Part shown: positions 1-50,060 of the stretch, one piece after another | Layout: every line of letters begins with the position of its first letter | Numbering within the stretch: the stretch's first letter is position 1 | Source: Longimicrobiales bacterium | Lineage (GTDB): Bacteria > Gemmatimonadota > Gemmatimonadetes > Longimicrobiales > Gaopeijiaceae | Direction of reading: 5' to 3' | Length of the DNA stretch: 64,000 nucleotides | Assembly (NCBI GenBank): GCA_963664435.2 | Contig: CAXXKM010000002.1 | Coordinates: 224,001-288,000, forward strand | Notes under the pieces: model-generated | Databases searched by the model: none | Seen by the model: only the letters and a program-made list of their open reading frames with translations | What the model was told of the DNA's origin: nothing | Made by a program: the position numbers and the translations under genes

Positions 1-1284
1 CGTGTGTTCGGCACGGTCGTCGTCGACGGGATCGTGCTCGGTCGCGAGGGGCGCGCCGGTCTTGCGCCGCAGCTGGTCGAGGAGCGCCAGGTACAGACGG
101 TTGACGCCGGCGTCGTTGAAGCGCGAGGCCACCGTGCCGTACACCGGAAGCGCCTCGTCGGGCGCGGTCCACATGCGGTGGTTGCGCCGGTACTGCTTGC
201 GCACGTCCCGGAGCGCGTCCAGCGCCCCCGGGCGGTCGAACTTGTTGATGGCGACCACGTCCGCGTAGTCCAGCATGTCGATCTTCTCGAGCTGGCTGGC
301 GGCGCCGTACTCGGCCGTCATCACGTACAGCGACACATCGGAGTGCCCGACCACTTCGGCGCCGAACTGACCGATCCCGGGCGTCTCGATGATCACCAGG
401 TCGTAGCCGGCGGCCTTGCAGATGTCCACCGCGTGGCGCGCGTGCGGGGACAGGCCGAGGGTCGAGGCGCGGGTGGCCAGCGAGCGCATGTAGACCCGCG
501 GGCTGGCGGCGGCGTTGACCCGGATGCGGTCGCCCAGCAGCGCGCCCCCGGTGCGGCGTTTGGACGGATCCACCGAGACGATCGCGACCCGGCCGTCGGG
601 GGTGCCGGACAGGTAGCGCCGCACCAGCTCGTCCACCAGCGACGACTTGCCCGAGCCGCCCGTGCCCGTGACGCCCAGCACCGGCACGCGCCGCGCGGTC
701 GCCATCTCCGCCACCATCTCCATCGCTTCGGCCGCGCCCGGGTATCCGTTCTCGGCCGCCGAGATCAGGCGCGCGACCGCCCCCACGTCCGCCCGCCCGA
801 GCGCGCGCACGTGGCCCTCCGGATCGTCGAGCGACGAGCGCACCGAACGGCGGGCCCCCTCGAGCACTTCGTCGATCATCCCCTGGAGCCCCATCGCCCG
901 CCCGTCGTCGGGAGAGAAGATCCGGTCGATGCCGCGCCGGTGCAGCTCTTCGACTTCCGTGGGGAGGATGGTCCCGCCCCCGCCGCCGAAGACGCGGATG
1001 TCCGCGCCCCGCTCGCGCAGCAGGTCGCGCACATAGGTGAAGAACTCCATGTGCCCGCCCTGGTACGAGCTGATCGCGATGGCGTGCGCGTCCTCCTGGA
1101 TCGCACACTCGACGATCTCGAGGGCGGAGCGGTTGTGCCCCAGGTGGATGACTTCCGCGCCGGAGTCCTGGAGGATCCGGCGCATCACGTTGATGGCGGC
1201 GTCGTGTCCGTCGAAGAGCGACGCCGCCGTGACTACCCGGATGGGCTGAGCGGTACGCGGCGGGGCGGCAGCAAGGCGATCCAT
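1..1284 (-). CDS. icmF: Fused isobutyryl-CoA mutase/MeaB GTPase IcmF, N-terminal part (runs off window)
   Basis: Absent from the ORF track because there is no stop in the window. Manual translation from ATG 1284 gives MDRLAAAPPRTAQPIRVVTAASLFDGHDAAINVMRRILQDSGAEVIHLGHNRS (B12-binding domain), then MeaB motifs VLGVTGTGGSGKSSLVDEL, GALLGDRIR and INKFD. Confidence 0.92.
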   Translation of the reverse strand, partial: MDRLAAAPPRTAQPIRVVTAASLFDGHDAAINVMRRILQDSGAEVIHLGHNRSALEIVECAIQEDAHAIAISSYQGGHMEFFTYVRDLLRERGADIRVFGGGGGTILPTEVEELHRRGIDRIFSPDDGRAMGLQGMIDEVLEGARRSVRSSLDDPEGHVRALGRADVGAVARLISAAENGYPGAAEAMEMVAEMATARRVPVLGVTGTGGSGKSSLVDELVRRYLSGTPDGRVAIVSVDPSKRRTGGALLGDRIRVNAAASPRVYMRSLATRASTLGLSPHARHAVDICKAAGYDLVIIETPGIGQFGAEVVGHSDVSLYVMTAEYGAASQLEKIDMLDYADVVAINKFDRPGALDALRDVRKQYRRNHRMWTAPDEALPVYGTVASRFNDAGVNRLYLALLDQLRRKTGAPLATEHDPVDDDRAEHT

Positions 1285-1294
1285 CCAGCCTCCT

Positions 1295-2245
1295 TCACGG
1301 CACGATCACCGAGAGCGCCGAGGGGACGACATCCACGCGCACCTTGCCCGTGCGCGACTGATGCACGTCGCCGTCGACCTCGTAACGTACGCGCTCGCCG
1401 AACTGCACGGCAAAAGCGCGATGCTGGCGCAGAGAAACCTCCTTCGCGCCCACATGCCTGCCCTTCTCGGCGAGGCTGAACAGCCGGGCCCGTCCCAGCG
1501 GCGAGGAATCGGCGATCGCGCACGCGTCCAGCCGCCCATCCTCGAGGTCCGCGTCCGGGGCGATCGGGAATCCGCCCCCGAAGATGCGTCCGTTCGATAT
1601 GGTGAGGATGAGGTGCCGTCCCTCGGTCCTCCAGCCACCGCCGTCCGACAGGCGCAGCCGCGAACTCCGGTACAGGAACAACTGCTGCAGGGCGGTGACC
1701 TTGTACAGGACCGCCCCCCGCAGGAAGCGGGCTCTCAGGCTGGCGTCGATGACGGCGATGTCGAAGCCGAAACCCACCAGGTTCAGGAAGTGGCGCGGGG
1801 TATCGCGCCAGGCTGTGCCGGATGCCACCTCCGGATAGGGTGCGGGACGCCACCCCGACACCACCCGCCCCACGTCGATACGGCGGGTCCGGCCCGCCGC
1901 CAGCGCCGCCACCGCCTTCTCCGGGTCGCCGTAGCTGAGCCCGAGGCTCCTGGCGAAGTCGTTCCCGGTTCCCGCAGCCAGCAGGCCCAGCGACACATCC
2001 GTGCGCCCGGATGCCACCACGCGGTCGGCCACCTGGCTGCAGGTGCCGTCGCCCCCCACGGCCACGATCAGCTCCGCCCCGTCGGCGATTGCCTTGCCCG
2101 CGAGTTCGGCTTCCTCGCCCGGCGCCGTGGTCGACGCCCACTCGTAGGCATCGAGGTGCCTGTCGAGGAGCCCACGGTAGAGGGGGAGGCGGCGCGCGCC
2201 CCGTCCGCGGCCGGAAGCCGGGTTGAAGACGACGAAGGTGCGCAC
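1295..2245 (-). CDS. Diacylglycerol/sphingosine kinase family lipid kinase (YegS/DgkB-like)
   Basis: Motifs VFNPASG, AVGGDGT, GTGNDFA, NGRIFGGG, EVDGD. Start is GTG 2245 or CTG 2257, which overlaps the upstream stop. Confidence 0.9.
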   Translation of the reverse strand: MRTFVVFNPASGRGRGARRLPLYRGLLDRHLDAYEWASTTAPGEEAELAGKAIADGAELIVAVGGDGTCSQVADRVVASGRTDVSLGLLAAGTGNDFARSLGLSYGDPEKAVAALAAGRTRRIDVGRVVSGWRPAPYPEVASGTAWRDTPRHFLNLVGFGFDIAVIDASLRARFLRGAVLYKVTALQQLFLYRSSRLRLSDGGGWRTEGRHLILTISNGRIFGGGFPIAPDADLEDGRLDACAIADSSPLGRARLFSLAEKGRHVGAKEVSLRQHRAFAVQFGERVRYEVDGDVHQSRTGKVRVDVVPSALSVIVP

Positions 2246-2253
2246 CCCGTCGC

Positions 2254-2916
2254 TCAGATGTGCTCCAGTTCCTCGAATACCTGGACGCCGTTCCTCATCC
2301 ACTGCTCGCGAAACGGATAAGTGGCCACCTGGTCCAGGGTCAGCTGGGAGGTCATCGGGTGCTCATGCAGCTTCAGCGACCCCAGCTCCTCCTCGTGCTC
2401 GCTGTGCGGCCCCTGCATGTGGATGTCCACCTTGAAGCGGTCGTCGCCGTTGACCATGAACGACTGGTAGAGGTGATCGACCTTCGCCGACCGGTGGTCC
2501 GCGATCTCGAAATCCAGGACGGGCTGGTCTCCGTCGCGCACCTCCACCCGCATGCGTCCGTCCGAGGGCTGGAGGCTGATGTCGAGATCCTTCATGTAGT
2601 GCGGAAGATGCCAGCGCTCGATGGCGTGCTCGCGCGACGCCTCCGTGCTCGTCCCGACGAGGTAGGGGTAGAATGCGGATTTCGCCATACCCTGGCCCGG
2701 ACTCACCAGCGGCGGGACGATGACCGAAAGCACGATCTCCTGATAGGGTCCGACCATGCTGTCGGTGAAGTCGAAGGCGGTGACCGCAAGGATGCTTGCC
2801 TCGTGCTGCACTTCGAGCGGCTGCAGGTGCGGGGGAAGGATGCGGCGGGCATCCGAGGTGGCGATTTCGAAGAAGGCGCTGACCGCCTCCGAATAGTGAT
2901 ACCGGGTCAGGGGCAT
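2254..2916 (-). CDS. Acetoacetate decarboxylase-like superfamily protein
   Basis: C-terminal 220 aa of track ORF 2254..4077, from ATG 2916 overlapping the upstream stop. LPPHLQP and FTDSMVGPYQEIVLSV match the ADC fold pattern. Confidence 0.7.
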   Translation of the reverse strand: MPLTRYHYSEAVSAFFEIATSDARRILPPHLQPLEVQHEASILAVTAFDFTDSMVGPYQEIVLSVIVPPLVSPGQGMAKSAFYPYLVGTSTEASREHAIERWHLPHYMKDLDISLQPSDGRMRVEVRDGDQPVLDFEIADHRSAKVDHLYQSFMVNGDDRFKVDIHMQGPHSEHEEELGSLKLHEHPMTSQLTLDQVATYPFREQWMRNGVQVFEELEHI

Positions 2917-4316
2917 TTTCCGTATTTCTTGAGAATGGAGACGATGATCTCGGCGCCCTCCTTCAACTCCGCCCGGGTGTGGGATGCCGAGATGGACATG
3001 CGGAAACGCGACTTGTGCTTGCCCACCGCCGGGAAGCGGACGGGGTTGATGTAGACGCCCGCGTGCAGCAGATCCTCCGCGATCTGGAAGATGCCGGCAT
3101 CGTCGCGGATCATGATGGAGATCACCTGCGAAGTGGAGTCCCCGACGTCCACGCCCGCCTCGCGCATGAGTGCGTGCATGTAGCGGGCGTTGTCCCACAG
3201 CCTCTCGCGGAGCTCCGGTTCGGACCGGGCGATCTCGAGCGCCTTCAGGAGCCCGGCCGTCACCGGGGGCGGAAGCGCGCAGGAGAAGACGCGGGAACGC
3301 GCGAAGCCGCGCAGATAGTAGATGAGCTCGGCGGGTCCGGCGACGAACCCTCCCAACCCGCCCAGGCTCTTGGAGAAGGTTCCCAGGTGGATGTCGACCT
3401 CGTCGTCGAGACCGAAGTGCTCGGCGACGCCGCGGCCGTTGGGCCCGTAGACGAAGGTGGAGTGCGCCTCGTCGATGAGGAGGCGCGCCCCGTGCTTGCG
3501 GCAAACGTCGACGATCGCGGGCAGATCGGCCACGTCCCCGTCCATCGAGTACACACCCTCGACGACCACCAGCTTCTTGCCGCTGAACCCGTTCAGCTTG
3601 CGGTCCAGATCCGCCGCGTTGTTGTGCTTGAAGAAGCGGGATGTCGCCTTGGACAGGATCATCCCGTCGACGACGCTCGCGTGGGCCAGCTTGTCCGCCA
3701 CCACCAGATCGCCCGGGCGCATCAGGCCGGCGATGAGCCCGACGTTGGCGCTGTAGCCGGTCGGGAAGATGAGTGCGGCTTCCTTGCCCTTGAAGGATGC
3801 GACCTCGTTGGCGAGGCGCTTGTGCAGGTCCGTGGTGCCGGAGAGCACGGGCGATCCGGAGGCGCCTGCCCCGTACTTGCGCACGGCGTCGCAGATGGCC
3901 TCGATCACCTCCGGGCGGTAGGAAAGCCCCAGATAGTTGTAGGACGCGAAGTTGATCAGGCCCTCGAGGTTTTCCCGGGTCTTGGGATCCTCGATCTCGA
4001 CTCGGGTCGCGGGCGCGGAACCCAGCGGCAACCCGTAAAGGTAGTAGCCCGCCCCGAACTCGGCGTCCTTCCACCACTCCCCGAAGGGCTCCAGAATCCC
4101 GAAGGGATCGGTGCCTGCTCCGAAATAGAAGTTGGTGTAATCGTAGTCGCTCAAGCCCCGCAGCGGCGGCCGGTCATCGTCCTGGGGGGTCGAGCCGTGG
4201 GAGGCGCCGCGCGCTCCGTCCGAATCGACGGTAGCGAGATCCGTTGCTCCGCCGGCCGCCGCCTGCCGCGTTGACGCCGAAGCGGATTTCCTGCTAGCGT
4301 TTCGAATGTCACTCAT
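2907..4316 (-). CDS. PLP-dependent alpha-oxoamine synthase, serine palmitoyltransferase-like
   Basis: NFASYNYLGL, PTGYSAN, HASVVDG, EGVYSMDGD, DEAHS and PLP-lysine motif GTFSKS (SPT-type). Lipid-gene neighbourhood, with no bio or tdh genes nearby. Confidence 0.8.
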   Translation of the reverse strand: MSDIRNASRKSASASTRQAAAGGATDLATVDSDGARGASHGSTPQDDDRPPLRGLSDYDYTNFYFGAGTDPFGILEPFGEWWKDAEFGAGYYLYGLPLGSAPATRVEIEDPKTRENLEGLINFASYNYLGLSYRPEVIEAICDAVRKYGAGASGSPVLSGTTDLHKRLANEVASFKGKEAALIFPTGYSANVGLIAGLMRPGDLVVADKLAHASVVDGMILSKATSRFFKHNNAADLDRKLNGFSGKKLVVVEGVYSMDGDVADLPAIVDVCRKHGARLLIDEAHSTFVYGPNGRGVAEHFGLDDEVDIHLGTFSKSLGGLGGFVAGPAELIYYLRGFARSRVFSCALPPPVTAGLLKALEIARSEPELRERLWDNARYMHALMREAGVDVGDSTSQVISIMIRDDAGIFQIAEDLLHAGVYINPVRFPAVGKHKSRFRMSISASHTRAELKEGAEIIVSILKKYGKCP

Positions 4317-4370
4317 ATGTTTGCCCGATGTTCTTCCGATCGGACCACACCCGCCATTCAGGACACGTCA

Positions 4371-5141
4371 TTGGACCTCCGTGGCGCCTTGACTCTCACC
4401 GCGCTCGGCGCGGCGCTACTGGCCTGCGACCTTGTTCAGCGCCTCCTGATCGCACCCATGGCGCGATTGCTGCCGGGGAACCGTGACGCTCTGCTCACGG
4501 AGTGGCAGCGCTTCACGGCCCATGTGGTCATCTTCTTCCTTCGCCATATGGGCGGAGTGCGTTTCGGCGAGTTGCCGGACATCCCGTCAACCCGCGGCGT
4601 GCTGGTGCTCATGAACCACCAGTCGCTGCTCGACATCCCGCTCGTCGTGGCGTCGATGCGCGGCGTCTACCCCCGCATCGTCACGCGCAGGCGATACGCC
4701 CGCGGCGTTCCCCTAATATCCCACATGACAAGGCTGTACCGATACCCCTTGGTCGATGCGAGAGCAACCCTGCGCGGCGAGCTGAAGCGGCTTCGCCGGG
4801 AAGCGGCCGCTTCCACGCATCCCCTCGTCATCTACCCGGAGGGAACCCGGAGCAGGACGGGTCGCATCGGCCCCTTCAAGACGCTGGGGCTGGCGACCAT
4901 TCTGGCGGCGCGCCGCTGGAGCGTGTACGTCGTGGTGGCGGACGGATTGTGGAAGTGGACGCGACTCAGGGACTTCTTCGGAAACCTATCGTTGATGCGC
5001 ACCCGCGTCGAGTGCCTGGGACCCTTCGAATCGCCGGCGGCGGATGCCGATCTGGATGGGTTCATCATGGAGATGCGGGGCGTCATGATCGGAATGCTCG
5101 ACGAAATGCGGGGCGTCCCCACGGCGGCGGAGCCCGTATGA
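4371..5141 (+). CDS. Lysophospholipid (PlsC-like) acyltransferase
   Basis: NHQSLLD (HX4D) and YPEGTRS motifs; N-terminal hydrophobic segment. Probable TTG start at 4371. Confidence 0.88.
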   Translation: MDLRGALTLTALGAALLACDLVQRLLIAPMARLLPGNRDALLTEWQRFTAHVVIFFLRHMGGVRFGELPDIPSTRGVLVLMNHQSLLDIPLVVASMRGVYPRIVTRRRYARGVPLISHMTRLYRYPLVDARATLRGELKRLRREAAASTHPLVIYPEGTRSRTGRIGPFKTLGLATILAARRWSVYVVVADGLWKWTRLRDFFGNLSLMRTRVECLGPFESPAADADLDGFIMEMRGVMIGMLDEMRGVPTAAEPV

Positions 5142-6169
5142 CGAGCTCGGACGCGCCCATCGAGCACCTGGTTTCCGGGCTGCGGGAGACCGGCGGCGAC
5201 GGGCTGCTGGCGGTGCTGGCGTACGGCTCGCGGCTCGTGTCGGCAAGCCCGGACCGGCACAGCGCCTGGGACCTGGTCGTCGTGGTCGAAGACTACCGTG
5301 CGTTCTATCGCGCACTCCACGAAGACGGACACACGGCGCGCAGTGCGACGTTGCTCGCGACCGTGAGCCGCGTGCTGGCTCCGACCGTCATCGCCTTCTG
5401 GCCGGCTCCGCCGGACGGACCGCTGGCCAAGTGCCTCGTCCTCTCGCGCGCCGACTTCCAGCGGGAACTGGGGCCGCGCCGCCTCGACCACTTCTGCCTG
5501 GGCCGGATGGCGCACCACATCTCGGTCGTGCATGCCCGCGACCCGGACGCGGCCGCGTGGGTCGAGGGGCTGGTGGCCCGCGCACGGCAGATGGTGCTCG
5601 ACTGGACGCTCCCGTTTCTGGGGGGTTCGTTCTCCGTGGACGATTTCTGCCGGCGCATGCTCGAGATCTCGTACGCCGGAGAGATCCGGCCGGAACGCGG
5701 AGGCCGGGCAAGCGCCGTGTACGAGGCCCAGCGGGAGACGCTGCGCGGCATCTACACTCCCATCCTGGAGGCCCAGGTGGCGTCGGGGATGCTCGAGCGG
5801 ACGAACGGCAAGTACCGCGCGGCTCATCCCGCGTCGACCGTGGCCCAGCTCAGGCTGAACGCCTACTTCGGCATCAGCAAGGCACGCGCCACCACCCGCT
5901 GGGTCAAGCACATGCTCACGTTCGACAGCTGGTTCCCCTACATCGTGCGCAAGGTCGAACGGCGCACCGGGATGACGATCGAGATCACGCCTCTGGAGCG
6001 GCGCTTCCCCTTCCCGCTCCTGCTCCCCAAGGCGTTGCGGGTGCTGCGGGCACGCGGCCGGGAGCGAAACGGAAGCACAACGACGACGCGGACCGCCGCC
6101 GACAGGACGCACGGACGCCGTACGGCCGGGCCACGCGGCCGGAACCACCCCGGGGGCAAGGTCCCTTGA
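5138..6169 (+). CDS. Pol-beta-type nucleotidyltransferase, Tam41-like (putative phosphatidate/lipid-phosphate cytidylyltransferase)
   Basis: ATGA overlap with the upstream gene. AVLAYGS...WDLVVVVEDY nucleotidyltransferase signature and EISYAGEIR resemble Tam41/Mmp37. Lies between the acyltransferase and the CDP-alcohol phosphotransferase. Confidence 0.65.
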   Translation: MTSSDAPIEHLVSGLRETGGDGLLAVLAYGSRLVSASPDRHSAWDLVVVVEDYRAFYRALHEDGHTARSATLLATVSRVLAPTVIAFWPAPPDGPLAKCLVLSRADFQRELGPRRLDHFCLGRMAHHISVVHARDPDAAAWVEGLVARARQMVLDWTLPFLGGSFSVDDFCRRMLEISYAGEIRPERGGRASAVYEAQRETLRGIYTPILEAQVASGMLERTNGKYRAAHPASTVAQLRLNAYFGISKARATTRWVKHMLTFDSWFPYIVRKVERRTGMTIEITPLERRFPFPLLLPKALRVLRARGRERNGSTTTTRTAADRTHGRRTAGPRGRNHPGGKVP

Positions 6170-6900
6170 GACCCGAGCTGACGGTGCTGGTCGCGGTGGC
6201 GGGGTTCGCGCTCGCCACCATGCCGATCTTCGCGCTGAGTGCCGCCAACCGTGCGGTGGATGCGCTTGAGTCGACCACCCGGGGCAAGTTCGTTCTCGGT
6301 TCCTTTGCGCGCCGCTGGTTCTACTGGTTCGTGCGGCCTGTGGAGAAGGCCTCGCTCGCTCTTGGGCTTGCGCCGCTCTTCTACAACCTGCTCGGGGTTG
6401 CGTTCGGCGGGGTCGCCGGGTGGTTGTTCGCGTCCGGCCGATATGCCATGGGCGGCTGGTCGCTCCTGCTGAGCGGCGTCGCCGATGCCCTGGACGGGCG
6501 CATCGCGCGGGCGCGTGGACTGGCTTCGCCCCGTGGGGCGTTCCTGGACTCGACCCTCGACCGTTTCGCCGAGGTGGCCGCGTTCGTGGGGCTCGCGGTG
6601 GCGTTTCGCGGCTCCGGGGCGGCGCTCGCCGTGGTGGCGGCGGCGCTGGGTGGCTCGCTGCTTGTGAGCTACACGCGCGCGCGCGGCGAGAGCCAGGGCG
6701 TACTGTGCACGGCGGGCGTCATGCAGCGCGCCGAACGGCTCCTGCTGATCGGCTTCGGGGCGATCCTGGACGGCACCGGTTCCGCGCTGCTCGGGCGCGA
6801 CGCGGGCACGGTCCTGCTGGCCGTGCTCACGGTGACCGCGGTGGGCACCATGGCGACCGCCGTCTTCCGCACGGTGTGGATCGCGCGAAGACTGACGTAA
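6166..6900 (+). CDS. CDP-alcohol phosphatidyltransferase family protein
   Basis: Signature DALDGRIARARG...GAFLDSTLD; multiple TM helices; TTGA overlap start. Confidence 0.92.
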   Translation: MRPELTVLVAVAGFALATMPIFALSAANRAVDALESTTRGKFVLGSFARRWFYWFVRPVEKASLALGLAPLFYNLLGVAFGGVAGWLFASGRYAMGGWSLLLSGVADALDGRIARARGLASPRGAFLDSTLDRFAEVAAFVGLAVAFRGSGAALAVVAAALGGSLLVSYTRARGESQGVLCTAGVMQRAERLLLIGFGAILDGTGSALLGRDAGTVLLAVLTVTAVGTMATAVFRTVWIARRLT

Positions 6901-41857: not shown

Positions 41858-42171
41858 GGCTCGCAATGCGGAGTCCGGCTTGCTCCTCGCTGGTTTCGCT
41901 CGCGTGATGTTGGACAGTTCTCGGAATCGAACGCTCCATAGTCGCCTGGCCGGCGTGCGACGGCAAAAAAGAGACGGCGGGATGGGATGCGCCTACTGGA
42001 AAATACCGCCGGCGGGCCGGCGCCGCCTCGGCGCACCTCCGTTACCGCCATGCCGGCTTCCATGCTCAGCCGTCACGCGTGAGTTGATCCGCGTCCACCC
42101 CAAGACCATCTTGGGCGTCATGAAACATCATCAGACGGGAAACCCGACGCGGCGGGGGCCAAGGAAGCGGC

Positions 42172-43359
42172 ATGCTGTTCCGTAGACTCACGGTCAAGGG
42201 GCTGCTGTCCTTCGGGCCGAAAGGGATCGATCTTCCCCTGGAACCGCTGAACGTTCTAATCGGCCCCAATGGTTCTGGGAAAACCAACCTCTTGGAAGCC
42301 TTGGCGGTGTTGCAGGCTGCGCCCGGCAACCTGAGTGAGCCGTTCGTCACCGACGGCATTGTCGAGTGGCTCTGGAAGGGACCGAATGCGCGTGATTCAT
42401 GCACCATTGAGGTCTCGATACGCGACAGCAGCCGCTCGATGAAGCACTCCCTGACGTTGACCCACCACGCAGGACACCCGGTCATAAAGGACGAAAGGCT
42501 GGAATCGCGGACGATGCCCGATCAGGATGACGACTCCCTGCGTTTCCGTCGTTCTCGCGAGGACGGTTGGCCAACCGAAGCAGCGGGACGATTCATCGTT
42601 GATATGCGAGAATCGGAGTCAAAGCCGAGAAACCTGATTCTATTCGATGCCGCCTATCACCCCGAAATGTCATTCGTTTCGCTCGTAAGCCCACCCGACT
42701 TCCCCGAGCTTTGGCGACTAAAGGAACAATACACGCGCATCAGTCTCTTTCGGGACTGGTCCTTTGGGCCAAAAGCGGGATCGCGCCAATCCCCGAGCGC
42801 CCATGACCGCGCGGACTTTCTGAGCGAGGGCGGAGCGAACCTGCCTGTGGTGCTCTCGCACTTCCACGGTGAATCCAAGGCGCGAATGGTTAAGGCGCTG
42901 CGGCAGCTGTCGGGTGACATCATGGACTTCAGCTGCTCCGTGGCGGGCGGCAGGGTATTGCTCTTCCTTACGGAGCGTGGATCTCGGCTCATCCCCGCAA
43001 CCCGCCTCTCCGACGGCACACTCCGCTATCTGTGCCTGCTCGCCATACTGCTGCACCCTGAACCACCCCCACTCGTCGCTATCGAGGAACCGGAGCTCGG
43101 GCTTCACCCCGACTTGTTGCCGACGCTGGCCGATCTCCTGGTCGATGCGTCCCAACGCACGCAATTGGTCGTTACGACCCACTCCGACATCCTGGTGGAT
43201 GCGCTGACCGAGAAGCCGGAGAGCATCGTGGTGTGTGAAAAACACGACGGCCAAACCGAAATGCGCCGGCTGGACAGGAACGACCTGGAGAAGTGGCTCA
43301 AGGACTACCGCCTTGGCGAGCTTTGGACCTCGGGAGAGTTGGGCGGCAACCGTTGGTGA
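42172..43359 (+). CDS. AAA_21/ABC-type ATPase (COG4637-like)
   Basis: GPNGSGKTN, LSDGT, IEEPELGLHP and TTHS motifs; C-terminal LGELW..GELGG. Confidence 0.9.
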   Translation: MLFRRLTVKGLLSFGPKGIDLPLEPLNVLIGPNGSGKTNLLEALAVLQAAPGNLSEPFVTDGIVEWLWKGPNARDSCTIEVSIRDSSRSMKHSLTLTHHAGHPVIKDERLESRTMPDQDDDSLRFRRSREDGWPTEAAGRFIVDMRESESKPRNLILFDAAYHPEMSFVSLVSPPDFPELWRLKEQYTRISLFRDWSFGPKAGSRQSPSAHDRADFLSEGGANLPVVLSHFHGESKARMVKALRQLSGDIMDFSCSVAGGRVLLFLTERGSRLIPATRLSDGTLRYLCLLAILLHPEPPPLVAIEEPELGLHPDLLPTLADLLVDASQRTQLVVTTHSDILVDALTEKPESIVVCEKHDGQTEMRRLDRNDLEKWLKDYRLGELWTSGELGGNRW

Positions 43360-43952
43360 CCGCCAAGCTGTACATCGAGGGCGGTGGGGAAAGGTCGAAG
43401 AGCCAAGCGGCGCGTTTCCGTCAGGGTTGGAATCGCTTCTTCGAGAAGGTCGGGGTAGGTGGGCGTGTCAAGATCGTGCGCGGTGGAAGCCGCGATCGCA
43501 CCTTTGACCGGTTTGTCAGTGCGGTTTCGGAACCCTCGCATGACGATTTGCCCATTCTCGTTGTCGACAGCGAAAGCGTCGTTCAGCCGGAACATTCTGT
43601 CTGGGAGCATTTGAGGACGAGAGACAACTGGCGCCAGCCGCAGAACGCGGGCGACGATCAAGCCTTCCTGATGGTCCAGTTCATGGAAACCTGGTTCCTG
43701 GCCGATCGCGAGGCGTTGCAACGCTACTTCGGTGCAGGCTTTCGGAAGAAGAAACTGAAGCAGTGGCCTCGGTTGGAAGCGGTGGGAAAGGCGGCCGTCC
43801 TGACCGCACTTGACCAAGCCACGTCAAAATGTTCGAAGCCCTACGGGAAGGGCAGAGCCTCCTTTGAGCTACTGGGGACGATCGATCCCGGTCGGGTCGC
43901 GCAAGCGTGTCCTCATGCCAAGTCACTGATGGATCGCCTCAAGGAGCTTTAG
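43356..43952 (+). CDS. DUF4276-like (TOPRIM/RloB-like) protein
   Basis: LYIEGGG, VVDSE, METWFLAD and YGKG motifs; GTGA-coupled to the ATPase. Confidence 0.8.
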   Translation: MTAKLYIEGGGERSKSQAARFRQGWNRFFEKVGVGGRVKIVRGGSRDRTFDRFVSAVSEPSHDDLPILVVDSESVVQPEHSVWEHLRTRDNWRQPQNAGDDQAFLMVQFMETWFLADREALQRYFGAGFRKKKLKQWPRLEAVGKAAVLTALDQATSKCSKPYGKGRASFELLGTIDPGRVAQACPHAKSLMDRLKEL

Positions 43953-44021
43953 CAACGTCCGCCTGAGCCAATCCGACTCGCCCTGCTCGAGCGAACCACC
44001 CCTTATCCCTTCCCCGCCACC

Positions 44022-47622: not shown

Positions 47623-48933
47623 ATGTCCGACTCTCGACGACACGGCTTCATCCACGGCATCGCCGCTCCGCTGCTTGTCCTCACCCTCGCCGGCTGCGCG
47701 CCCGCCGACGCGCCATCGCCGGATCGCGTGGTCGCTTTCACCGGCATGCGCCTCATCGACGGGCTCGGCGGCGCGCCGGTCGATGACGCGGCGATGGTGG
47801 TGCGGGACGGGCGCATCGAAGCGGTGGGCCCGGCGGCCGGGATGGAAATCCCCGAGGGCGCCGAACAGATCGACCTGAGCGGCCGACATGTGGTGCCCGG
47901 ACTCATCAACACCCACGGCCACGTGGGCCGCTCGGCCGTCGTCGGGCTGGAAAGGGAGGCCGCCGACGAGGCCGTCCGCGACGAACTCCGGCTGTACGCG
48001 GCCTACGGCGTGACCACTGTGAACAGCCTGGGCGGGGGCGTGGAGCCGAGCATGCGCGTGCGCGACGCCCAGAGGGACAACCCCGGCCTCAACTACGCCC
48101 GCCTGCTCATGTCCGGCCCCGTCCTCACGGGCTCAACCCCTGACGAAGTGCGCGCACAAATCGAGGAGAACTCCCGCCTGATCCCCGACTGGCTCAAGCT
48201 GCGCGTCGACGACAATCTGGGCTCCTCGACCAAGATGCCGCCCGAGGCCTATCGGACGGCCATCGACGAAGCTCACGCCATGGGCCTCCGCCTCGCTTCC
48301 CACATGTTCTACCTCGAAGACGCCAAGAACCTGCTGCGCTCGGGCAGCGACTTCCTCGCCCACAGCGTGCGCGACACGAACATCGACCAGGAGTTCGTCG
48401 ACCTCGTCATGGAGACGGGCGTGTGCTACTGCCCGACCCTGACCCGCGAAGTGTCCACTTTCGTGTACCGCGAGCGCCCCGTCTTCTTCGACGATCCGTT
48501 CTTCACCCGTTACGCCAACGCCGAGGAAGTGGCCACTCTGCTGGACGAGGAGCGCATGAACTCGGTCCGGGAAAGCCGCTCTGCGGCGCTGTACGAGGAA
48601 GCGCTGGCCGTGGCGCTGGGCAACGTGAAGGCGGCGGTCGACGCGGGTATCATCGTGGCCATGGGCACCGACACCGGGCCGTTCGGCCGCTTCCAGGGCT
48701 ACTTCGAGCACATGGAGATGGAGCTCATGGCCGCCGCCGGGCTCTCCCCGTCCCAGATTCTCGCCTCTGCCACCGGGGACGCCGCAGCGTGCCTCGAACT
48801 GGACGACGTGGGCACGCTCGAGGCCGGCAAGTGGGCCGACTTCGTCGTCGTCAGCGACGATCCCCTCGCCGACATCATGAACCTGCGCTCCATCGAGTCG
48901 GTGTGGATCGCGGGAAACCAGGTGGAGCGCTGA
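47623..48933 (+). CDS. Amidohydrolase family lipoprotein
   Basis: Lipobox LAGC, PGLINTHGH, GVTT, GTD and GTLEAGKWADFVV motifs. Confidence 0.88.
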   Translation: MSDSRRHGFIHGIAAPLLVLTLAGCAPADAPSPDRVVAFTGMRLIDGLGGAPVDDAAMVVRDGRIEAVGPAAGMEIPEGAEQIDLSGRHVVPGLINTHGHVGRSAVVGLEREAADEAVRDELRLYAAYGVTTVNSLGGGVEPSMRVRDAQRDNPGLNYARLLMSGPVLTGSTPDEVRAQIEENSRLIPDWLKLRVDDNLGSSTKMPPEAYRTAIDEAHAMGLRLASHMFYLEDAKNLLRSGSDFLAHSVRDTNIDQEFVDLVMETGVCYCPTLTREVSTFVYRERPVFFDDPFFTRYANAEEVATLLDEERMNSVRESRSAALYEEALAVALGNVKAAVDAGIIVAMGTDTGPFGRFQGYFEHMEMELMAAAGLSPSQILASATGDAAACLELDDVGTLEAGKWADFVVVSDDPLADIMNLRSIESVWIAGNQVER

Positions 48934-50060
48934 CAAATCCCAGGTCCCCACTCGTCGTCGTGCCGGTGAAGAGCCGCGCCGACCTGCGACGCTTCGTCGA
49001 CCTGCCATGGTCCATCTATCGCGACGACCTCGACTGGGTGCCGCCGCTGAAGCGCGATGTCCGTGCCGCCTTCGACACGGCGAAACACCCCTTCCACTCA
49101 CACTCCGAGGTCCAGCCCTGGCTCGCATTGCGCGGCCGCCGGGTCGTGGGGCGCATCTGCGCAATCCGGAACCGGAATCACGAACGGGTGCACCGGGAGG
49201 CGGTTGGTTTCTTCGGCTGGTTCGAGTGCATCGACGACGCAGAGGTGGCGGAGGGGCTGTTCGAGGCCGTTCGGGGCTGGCTGCGGGATCGCGGTCTCAC
49301 GGCCATGCGCGGCCCGACCAGCTTTTCCACCAACGAGACCACCGGCCTCCTCATCGAAGGAGACAGGGGGCCACCGGCGCTTCTTCTGGCCCACAACCCG
49401 CCCTGGTATCCGACCCTGCTCGAGGGCTGCGGGCTCCGGAAGGTCAAGGACCTCTACGCCTGGCACATCGTGGCGGGGAACTGGCCCGAATACCTGTTTC
49501 GCGCCGAGAGGATCGTGACGCACCGCTACGGCATCCGCATCCGCACATTCGAAATGCCGAGGTTCGACCAGGAACTCGCCCTCGTTCGGCGACTCTACAA
49601 TTCCGCCTGGAGGAAGAACTGGGGCTTCGTGCCCATGACGGACGCCGAGATTGATCGCATGGCCGCCGAGCTGAAGCCGATCATGGATCCGAGCCTGGCC
49701 CTGTTCGCGGAAACACCCGCAGGGGAAGTGATCGGACTCGCGCTCGCCTTGCCGGATTTCAACCAGGTGCTGCACAGGCTCAACGGGCGGCTCACTCCGC
49801 TCGCAATCATCAAGCTGCTGGTCCACAAGCGCAGGATCACGCGCCTGCGCGTCCTCATCCTGGGGCTCCTGGAGGAGTGGCGGGGCAAGGGCATCGATGC
49901 GCTCCTCTACCTCGCGCTGTTCCGAAACGCCAGTGCAGCCGGGATGACGGAGGCGGACATGTCCTGGATTCTCGAGGGAAACCACCGAATGAACGCCGCG
50001 ATCGAACGCATGGGAGGCAGGATCTACCGCACCTACCGCCTCTACGAGGCTCCGCTGTAG
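48930..50060 (+). CDS. Double-GNAT acyltransferase resembling bacterial ceramide synthase bCerS
   Basis: FVDLPWSIY..D..WVPPL, GFFGWFEC, MRGP, HNPPWY, NWGFVP, LPDFN, WRGKG and SWILEGN. Start CTG 48930 (overlap) or GTG about 48960. Confidence 0.7.
   Translation: MTNPRSPLVVVPVKSRADLRRFVDLPWSIYRDDLDWVPPLKRDVRAAFDTAKHPFHSHSEVQPWLALRGRRVVGRICAIRNRNHERVHREAVGFFGWFECIDDAEVAEGLFEAVRGWLRDRGLTAMRGPTSFSTNETTGLLIEGDRGPPALLLAHNPPWYPTLLEGCGLRKVKDLYAWHIVAGNWPEYLFRAERIVTHRYGIRIRTFEMPRFDQELALVRRLYNSAWRKNWGFVPMTDAEIDRMAAELKPIMDPSLALFAETPAGEVIGLALALPDFNQVLHRLNGRLTPLAIIKLLVHKRRITRLRVLILGLLEEWRGKGIDALLYLALFRNASAAGMTEADMSWILEGNHRMNAAIERMGGRIYRTYRLYEAPL

Follow-up and report, generated by a model that had tools for sequence, protein, structure and literature searches.

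The window analysed here is a stretch of 64,000 nucleotides from a Longimicrobiales bacterium (GenBank assembly GCA_963664435.2, contig CAXXKM010000002.1, positions 224,001 to 288,000). Close to its beginning, between positions 1295 and 6900, six genes form one conserved and dedicated module, which is a real, conserved variant among the bacterial phosphosphingolipid systems. As to its product, we find the case evenly balanced for an inositol-phosphate-headed, sphingolipid-like phospholipid, made through a CDP-activated lipid by steps ordered as in glycerophospholipid synthesis, with a backbone derived from an amino acid. An earlier note on this DNA, drawn from the letters themselves, had placed six open reading frames here; reading of the frames and Pfam searches found all of them at those positions and strands. 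They are given below, together with one distant gene of the same window that bears on the argument.

1295..2245, minus strand: lipid kinase of the YegS/BmrU/DAGK family (alternative start GTG 2302; PF00781 E 2e-28, PF19279)
2254..2916, minus strand: acetoacetate-decarboxylase (ADC)-fold protein of 220 aa (PF06314 below cut-off; structure search)
2907..4316, minus strand: alpha-oxoamine synthase (AOS), similar to serine palmitoyltransferase (SPT), in its own clade (GTFSKS with the pyridoxal phosphate (PLP) lysine K316)
4371..5141, plus strand (longest open reading frame from ATG 4317): PlsC-family acyltransferase (PF01553 E 3.6e-13)
5138..6169, plus strand: Tam41-fold cytidylyltransferase, homologue of the CpgC family (structure search)
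6166..6900, plus strand: CDP-alcohol phosphotransferase (CDP-AP) of the phosphatidylinositol-phosphate (PIP) synthase type (NCBIfam, PDB matches, residues)
48930..50060, plus strand: orphan homologue of bacterial ceramide synthase (bCerS), start uncertain, 42 kb from the module

The six genes are arranged as two divergent triplets. Both had been described as translationally coupled, which is correct for the plus strand, where starts and stops overlap by 4 nt (ATGA at 5138-5141, TTGA at 6166-6169), and does not carry over to the minus strand. There the genes are close-packed, with a 10-nt overlap of AOS and ADC and an 8-nt gap between ADC and kinase. The reported gap of about 54 bp between the triplets depends on the start of the acyltransferase: it exists if translation begins at TTG 4371; with ATG 4317 as the start it vanishes, the two ATGs of acyltransferase and AOS then being adjacent.

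Conservation of the six-gene module

The genome set comprised 61 genomes, namely the genome of the window and 60 relatives, with orthologue thresholds of at least 55% identity for the AOS and at least 50% for the CDP-AP. The AOS orthologue, the ADC gene and the CDP-AP orthologue each occur in the identical 28 genomes, 18 of which belong to one genus, and the counts are not independent. AOS and ADC were never seen without the transferase. The Tam41-like orthologue is present in 27 of the 28 carriers; the last, G025, gave only a distant paralogue, and its assembly is fragmented (830 contigs), with the CDP-AP at a contig edge. The PlsC-like gene is found in 26 genomes, all within the same carrier set. 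The ADC gene stands immediately after the AOS in all 28 carriers. In genomes with a relocated AOS, a second ADC copy lies beside it and another remains with the rest of the module.

The module also recurs in metagenomes, where 79 loci were examined (the best 80 of 343 matches minus one near-identical) and 26 had enough flank. All 26 hold the ADC, PlsC-like and CDP-AP genes, 22 the kinase and 7 the AOS. Another family of the phylum (L187, L190) has the divergent six-gene layout too, with identities of 34-62%, and soil contigs carry the six genes as a single colinear operon (L125, L136). The arrangement exceeds chance, since the layout recurs in distant relatives. Through an even sample of the phylum, the ADC gene occurs in 12 of 121 genomes; by source names alone, homologues range over Gemmatimonadota, Ca. 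Krumholzibacteria and Ca. Eisenbacteria. The expectation of the earlier note that these genes co-occur in other genomes is borne out by the genome counts and the metagenome loci alike.

The genome has separate housekeeping genes, including CdsA, two other PlsC-family genes, and PgsA- and PssA-like CDP-APs. Given these ordinary enzymes elsewhere, and the co-inheritance of the six genes, the cluster is a dedicated module. A substitute for housekeeping phospholipid synthesis is ruled out by the same set of genes.

The AOS and its probable ADC-fold partner

The AOS contains GTFSKS with its PLP lysine, and equivalents of His138, Asp210 and His213 of SPT. The residues G80/S81, H138 and GTFSKS described for Sphingobacterium SPT (PMC10196870) are all retained. 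This SPT is also the best solved match in the PDB, with 291 bits versus 253 for the next, or 365 versus 316 when the AOS family profile is used. The equivalent of Ser53 is Asn, like human SPTLC2, which the family profile covers from residue 109 and scores below the bacterial SPT (276 versus 365 bits). The N-terminus may resemble LCB2; a search with AOS residues 40-145 gave no LCB2 chain. Serine is our best guess for the substrate, judged from the sequence.

A quick tree, built by IQ-TREE from 32 non-eukaryotic rows, places 11 module AOSs in a clade of their own with a support of 100. The tree gives no resolution on the position of this clade relative to PigH and the polyketide-synthase-type AOSs. 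The BioF/Kbl group is separate (99% support) and includes the second AOS of the genome. The earlier note had allowed that the AOS might group with BioF or Kbl, which was not seen in this tree with SPT, BioF and Kbl references. A misannotated BioF or Kbl is ruled out by the tree and by the family cut-offs (BioF 367 versus 426, Kbl 334 versus 460).

The ADC-fold protein is recognized poorly by sequence. Its match to PF06314 reaches 26.3 bits, below cut-off, a sequence search against the PDB gave no significant match, and the ESM Atlas returns the label 'ADC' only, with low recognition. The barrel fold is supported by a structural model with a pLDDT of 95.5 and by a Foldseek match to 3bh2 (E 4.5e-11). 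Across 100 sequences the protein keeps at least 59% identity, and some 40 columns, rich in His and Glu, are invariant; W102-H-L-P-H106 is among these, and no lysine is. We take WHLPH to occupy the site of the Schiff-base lysine in ADCs; a direct alignment with Clostridium Adc spanned residues 19-61 only, short of WHLPH. A predicted complex of AOS and ADC scored 0.40 versus 0.00 for the best control, which is a weak pass: the mark is reached by 116 of 157 solved pairs and by 2 of 215 mismatched pairs, but of the pairs that reach it, those at 0.60 or less include only 18 of the 157 solved ones, and both mismatches. The complex runs had at least 50% of contacts in common, with a partner pLDDT of at least 88. 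Because of this weak pass and the adjacency in 28 of 28 carriers, the ADC-fold protein is the likely partner of the AOS.

Predicted phosphorylation and acylation

The kinase is the only DAGK_cat gene of the genome and matches TIGR00147 above cut-off, and all of 64 homologues keep GGDGT. It is not an orthologue of CpgB: its similarity to CpgB homologues is weak (E 5e-5 and 3e-4) and confined to about 100 aa at the N-terminus. It does resemble the kinase next to Bacteroides spt, at 27% over 312 columns (E 8e-25), and a bacterial dihydrosphingosine kinase is known (PMC10331486). The acyltransferase conserves HX4D and EGxR, which 69-70 of 70 homologues carry as NHQSxxD and PEGxR. The former presumably serves catalysis and the latter phosphate binding. 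No dedicated acyl carrier protein (ACP) was found in the genome (best E 0.002).

Reductase genes adjoin the kinase in some loci. A zinc-dependent alcohol dehydrogenase of the medium-chain dehydrogenase/reductase (MDR) type directly follows it in six (L073, L109, L134, L144, L189, L190), and a CerR-like short-chain dehydrogenase/reductase (SDR) in four (L037-L039, L065), with one more 4.5 kb away. Neither has a clear orthologue in this genome (MDR 36% elsewhere). Both are candidates for a lineage-specific 3-keto reductase.

Proposed CDP activation and inositol phosphate head group

The Tam41-like protein has a Pfam match of 20.3 bits, below cut-off, and nothing significant was found among PDB sequences (solved Tam41 at E 0.12 by profile). 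Its AlphaFold model (pLDDT 89.1) has as top Foldseek matches 7ecd, a bacterial Tam41 (E 8.3e-10), and 6ig2 from yeast (E 8.2e-8), so the fold claimed earlier was right. In Roseomonas, the gene in the place of cpgC is a homologue, with 29% over 284 columns (E 8e-23), and homology to CpgC is judged from this gene, the Caulobacter sequence being outside the alignment. The Roseomonas match follows CDP-AP and kinase and precedes spt and acp, which is the Caulobacter cpgC position; the spt of this cpgA-cpgB-x-spt-acp cluster passes one NCBIfam SPT cut-off. Plasmid homologues of the Tam41-like protein (14 records) sit in alphaproteobacterial-type sphingolipid clusters. Plasmid-borne cpg-type clusters were seen in L053 (Pseudomonas plasmid pPNP1) and L052 (a Roseomonas plasmid). 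PF09139 gives no match in the Caulobacter control genome, and Pfam therefore cannot confirm CpgC.

According to the supplement of PMC11324152, CpgC bears a Tam41 InterPro domain, and PMC9393093 reports that Caulobacter cpgC mutants retain ceramide phosphate and lose ceramide phosphoglycerate (CPG). The earlier note had presented CDP-lipid activation as an undescribed logic. This was too strong: activation of ceramide-1-phosphate to NDP-ceramide by the Tam41-domain protein CpgC was proposed for Caulobacter in 2024 (PMC11324152), as a hypothesis rather than a proven step, and the mechanism of CpgC was still termed unidentified in May 2026 (PMC13228409).

Of 13 long matches of the profile search that were scanned, 5 combine a PlsC domain with the Tam41-like domain in one chain; these are predicted proteins, and read-through is possible. 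In other long matches the partner of the Tam41-like domain is a cytochrome P450 (P0128, P0133, again predicted), a CDP-AP, an EEP phosphatase or a MobA-like NTP transferase. A distant CpgC-like gene (L068:5099-7753) lies in a locus that lacks the module, divergent from a flippase-like gene and two glycosyltransferase-like ones.

The five top PDB matches of the CDP-AP are PIP synthases. Its best NCBIfam families are archaetidylinositol-phosphate/PIP synthases, below cut-off (125 versus 180 for NF040950, 97 versus 170 for NF045883). The signature DxxDGxxAR...GxxxDxxxD is present as D107, D110, G111, A114, R115, G124, D128 and D132, in at least 95% of 85 homologues. The inositol-phosphate residues S132, K135, R155 and R195 given for the mycobacterial PIP synthase (PMC4634129) correspond to invariant S168, R171, R191 and R235 in a HMMER alignment, R235 being offset by one. 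Every one of the 28 carriers has Ino1, as do 56 of the 61 genomes overall; in this genome it is unlinked to the module. A different PIP synthase (38-46%) occurs in 28 of 33 non-carriers, adjoining Ino1 in 26, and in only 3 of 28 carriers. The module CDP-AP is the only PIP-synthase-type gene here, and 25 of the 28 carriers have no PIP synthase besides it, which supports inositol phosphate as its probable acceptor and also allows that it may make ordinary phosphatidylinositol (PI).

Canonical ceramide genes

The bCerS homologue matches a Roseomonas bCerS-position protein with 36.6% identity (E 4e-60). It overlaps the stop of an amidohydrolase-like gene (window 47623-50060, plus strand), with neither spt nor cerR nearby, and this orphan is retained in 14 of 19 genus genomes searched (own included). 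No bCerS was found in 7 of the 28 carriers, four of which are assemblies of 1-2 contigs with 96-100% completeness. The genome has no CerR orthologue (best 69 bits to the CerR profile, at most 32% identity), and with bCerS unlinked, the Caulobacter-type set of Spt, ACP, bCerS and CerR is not found here. A CerR orthologue (E 1e-40 or better) occurs in 2 of 28 carriers versus 22 of 33 non-carriers; in the phylum sample the figures are 0 of 12 carriers versus 68 of 109 others. Non-carriers mostly have a cerR-spt-bcerS operon (L154-L156, L159).

In one lineage the PlsC-like gene is absent from four of four genomes searched, with bCerS present and a CerR-like SDR following the kinase; a fifth genome, from another lineage, has the PlsC-like gene. 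Some Longimicrobiales hold a second, alphaproteobacterial-type spt-acp-acyl ligase-bCerS-cpgB cluster (L157 in G031:C68, L059 in G025:C795), with an SPT ~55% identical to that of Roseomonas.

Proposed pathway and alternative explanations

The pathway that we propose would begin with the AOS and its ADC-fold partner, condensing an amino acid, most likely serine, with a long acyl thioester into a 3-keto long-chain base. The kinase would phosphorylate C1 of this base, and the PlsC-type enzyme would acylate the phosphorylated base, replacing bCerS. The Tam41/CpgC-type enzyme would convert the resulting (oxo)ceramide-1-phosphate into a CDP-lipid, and the PIP-synthase-type enzyme would transfer the CDP-lipid to inositol-1-phosphate from the unlinked Ino1. 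Long-chain-base-1-phosphate is a structural analogue of lyso-phosphatidate, hence the proposed order of kinase, PlsC, Tam41 and PIP synthase, which would account for all genes and for a dispensable bCerS. The genes, folds, catalytic motifs and co-inheritance are observed, as is the lack of canonical genes among the genomes searched; the substrates, the order of the second and third steps and the fate of the 3-keto group are all what we infer. The fuller version is a ceramide route free of bCerS and CerR, running from an AOS/ADC synthase through the kinase, a PlsC amide synthase and CDP-ceramide to inositol phosphoceramide, and replacing both the canonical operon and the Ino1-linked PI synthase; this we put forward tentatively, as possible and somewhat doubtful.

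A number of points weigh against the pathway. No precedent for N-acylation by a PlsC-family enzyme was found in the literature. We also know of none, O-acylation being the known chemistry of the family. The cluster contains no reductase, ACP or acyl-ligase, and no conserved reductase adjoins it. bCerS is kept in 21 of the 28 carriers, this genome included. Neither route is present in 41 of 121 phylum genomes, and the exclusion of the canonical genes is largely at the family level, among kin that are not independent. The exchange of PlsC for bCerS and SDR is that of a single lineage, which also carries an alphaproteobacterial-type spt cluster. In Caulobacter, the CDP-alcohol transferase CpgA comes into play once CPG has been made, and its presumed donor is CDP-glycerate rather than a CDP-lipid (PMC12275187). 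Firmicutes Tam41 is reported to produce CDP-diacylglycerol (CDP-DAG) (PMC11646218), and the fold alone therefore leaves the substrate unfixed.

Further such points come from the AOS. It lies outside the canonical SPT group, which has 98% support without it, and its scores fall far short of each of the three NCBIfam cut-offs for SPT (362 versus 640, 335 versus 500, 270 versus 670), while the Roseomonas and Bacteroides reference SPTs pass. Its reading as an SPT in the earlier note thus holds for GTFSKS and the best PDB match, and fails for clade and cut-offs. The SPT loop GSRFLN is replaced by GSP(V/I)LS(G) in 25 of 25 orthologues, an extra conserved Arg stands beside Met271, and Asn52, which touches the serine hydroxyl via water in Sphingobacterium SPT (PMC10196870), is Tyr (Tyr126).

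These features lend themselves to a different backbone. The same CDP-lipid line may start from an aminolipid not derived from serine, whose aminoketone the ADC-fold protein would remodel by rearrangement, dehydration or decarboxylation before phosphorylation. Such a backbone agrees with the separate clade at 100% support, the invariant altered loop, the Tyr in place of Asn52, the obligatory His/Glu-rich partner and the lack of a conserved reductase. Against this, SPT is the best solved match by about 40-50 bits, the kinase requires a hydroxyl that serine would supply, and the Ser53-equivalent Asn is as in human SPTLC2. We consider this backbone unlikely, though a serious contender.

A less probable explanation separates the two triplets. 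The plus triplet would be a dedicated glycerolipid route, from lyso-phosphatidate via phosphatidate and CDP-DAG to phosphatidylinositol phosphate, and the minus triplet would make another product or consume that lipid. This agrees with the textbook activities of the PlsC, Tam41 and PIP-synthase families, including the CDP-DAG product of bacterial Tam41 cited above; the CDP-AP, as sole PIP synthase of most carriers, may serve PI synthesis as well, and the AOS lies apart from the plus triplet in 19 of the 26 metagenome loci. Against the division stand the CdsA and PlsC encoded elsewhere in the genome, the lack of any AOS or ADC without the transferase in the 61 genomes, the colinear six-gene operons, and the Tam41-like protein, whose match to the proteins at the cpgC position (E 8e-23) is closer than that to solved Tam41 (E 0.12). 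Least probable, in our view, is a ceramide made via the orphan bCerS and an unlinked reductase, with a CpgB-like ceramide kinase and a PlsC-like enzyme that merely adds an extra O-acyl chain: bCerS in this genome and 21 of 28 carriers, the usual O-acylation by PlsC enzymes and the SDR or MDR gene after the kinase in 10 loci fit it, but bCerS was not found in the four near-closed carriers, this genome has no CerR orthologue, and the invariant EGxR, given its presumed role, suggests a phosphorylated acceptor.

Other features of the window

A co-oriented gene (window 1-1282, minus strand) lies 12 nt beyond the kinase, and this adjacency is kept only inside the genus. It may encode a fused B12 isobutyryl-CoA mutase/MeaB. 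At window 42001-44000, the G+C content falls to 0.61 across an AAA-ATPase-like gene pair.

Significance and comparison with known systems

Sphingolipid producers among bacteria are predicted by the presence of Spt, bCerS and CerR. If the module works without the last two, it would bring in abundant lineages of sponges, sea and soil that escape such screens. The module is also a compact six-gene system for the CpgC question, that is, whether CDP-ceramide is real, with a matching head-group transferase adjoining. It offers two candidate new activities, namely N-acylation by the PlsC family and a function for an ADC-fold protein that seems to lack the Schiff-base lysine. No description of this six-gene module, no paper on CDP-ceramide in bacteria, and none treating SPT and sphingolipids in Gemmatimonadota together with Acidobacteria, was found in the open-access literature.

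The closest comparison is with spt-cpgC-cpgB-cpgA of Caulobacter crescentus (CC_1162-CC_1159), which makes CPG and likewise brings together an SPT-type gene, a DAGK-family kinase, a Tam41-domain protein and a CDP-alcohol transferase. Unlike it, the module lacks ACP, acyl-ACP synthetase, CerR, bCerS and CpgD, the last of which activates the soluble head group in Caulobacter (PMC12275187). Its AOS belongs to another clade, its kinase is not a CpgB orthologue, its transferase is of the PIP-synthase type, and it has the additional PlsC-like and ADC-fold genes.

The Tam41 CDP-diacylglycerol synthases (PF09139; 7ecd, 6ig2) share the fold of the module protein (TM 0.56/0.68), one acidic nucleotidyltransferase residue, conserved Lys/Arg and SY-x-G-E/D-x-R. 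However, identity is 11-15%, the module protein is below the Pfam cut-off, the genome already has CdsA, and the neighbouring genes suggest a sphingoid substrate. Bacteroides thetaiotaomicron BT_1522-1526 offers a likeness in Ino1, a PIP synthase and a bacterial inositol-phospho-dihydroceramide as end product (PMC9246714). There, as the same source describes, an AUR1-like enzyme moves the head group from PI-DAG to ceramide, whereas the module has no such gene and CDP activation would fall on the lipid itself. The canonical Gemmatimonadota cerR-spt-bcerS operon comes from the same phylum and also starts ceramide synthesis with an AOS, but its AOS is about 41-46% identical and of another clade, and the operon occurs in only 2 of the 28 module carriers. 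The most distinctive points of the module, absent from the earlier note, are its PIP-synthase-type transferase and its occurrence without CerR and sometimes without bCerS.

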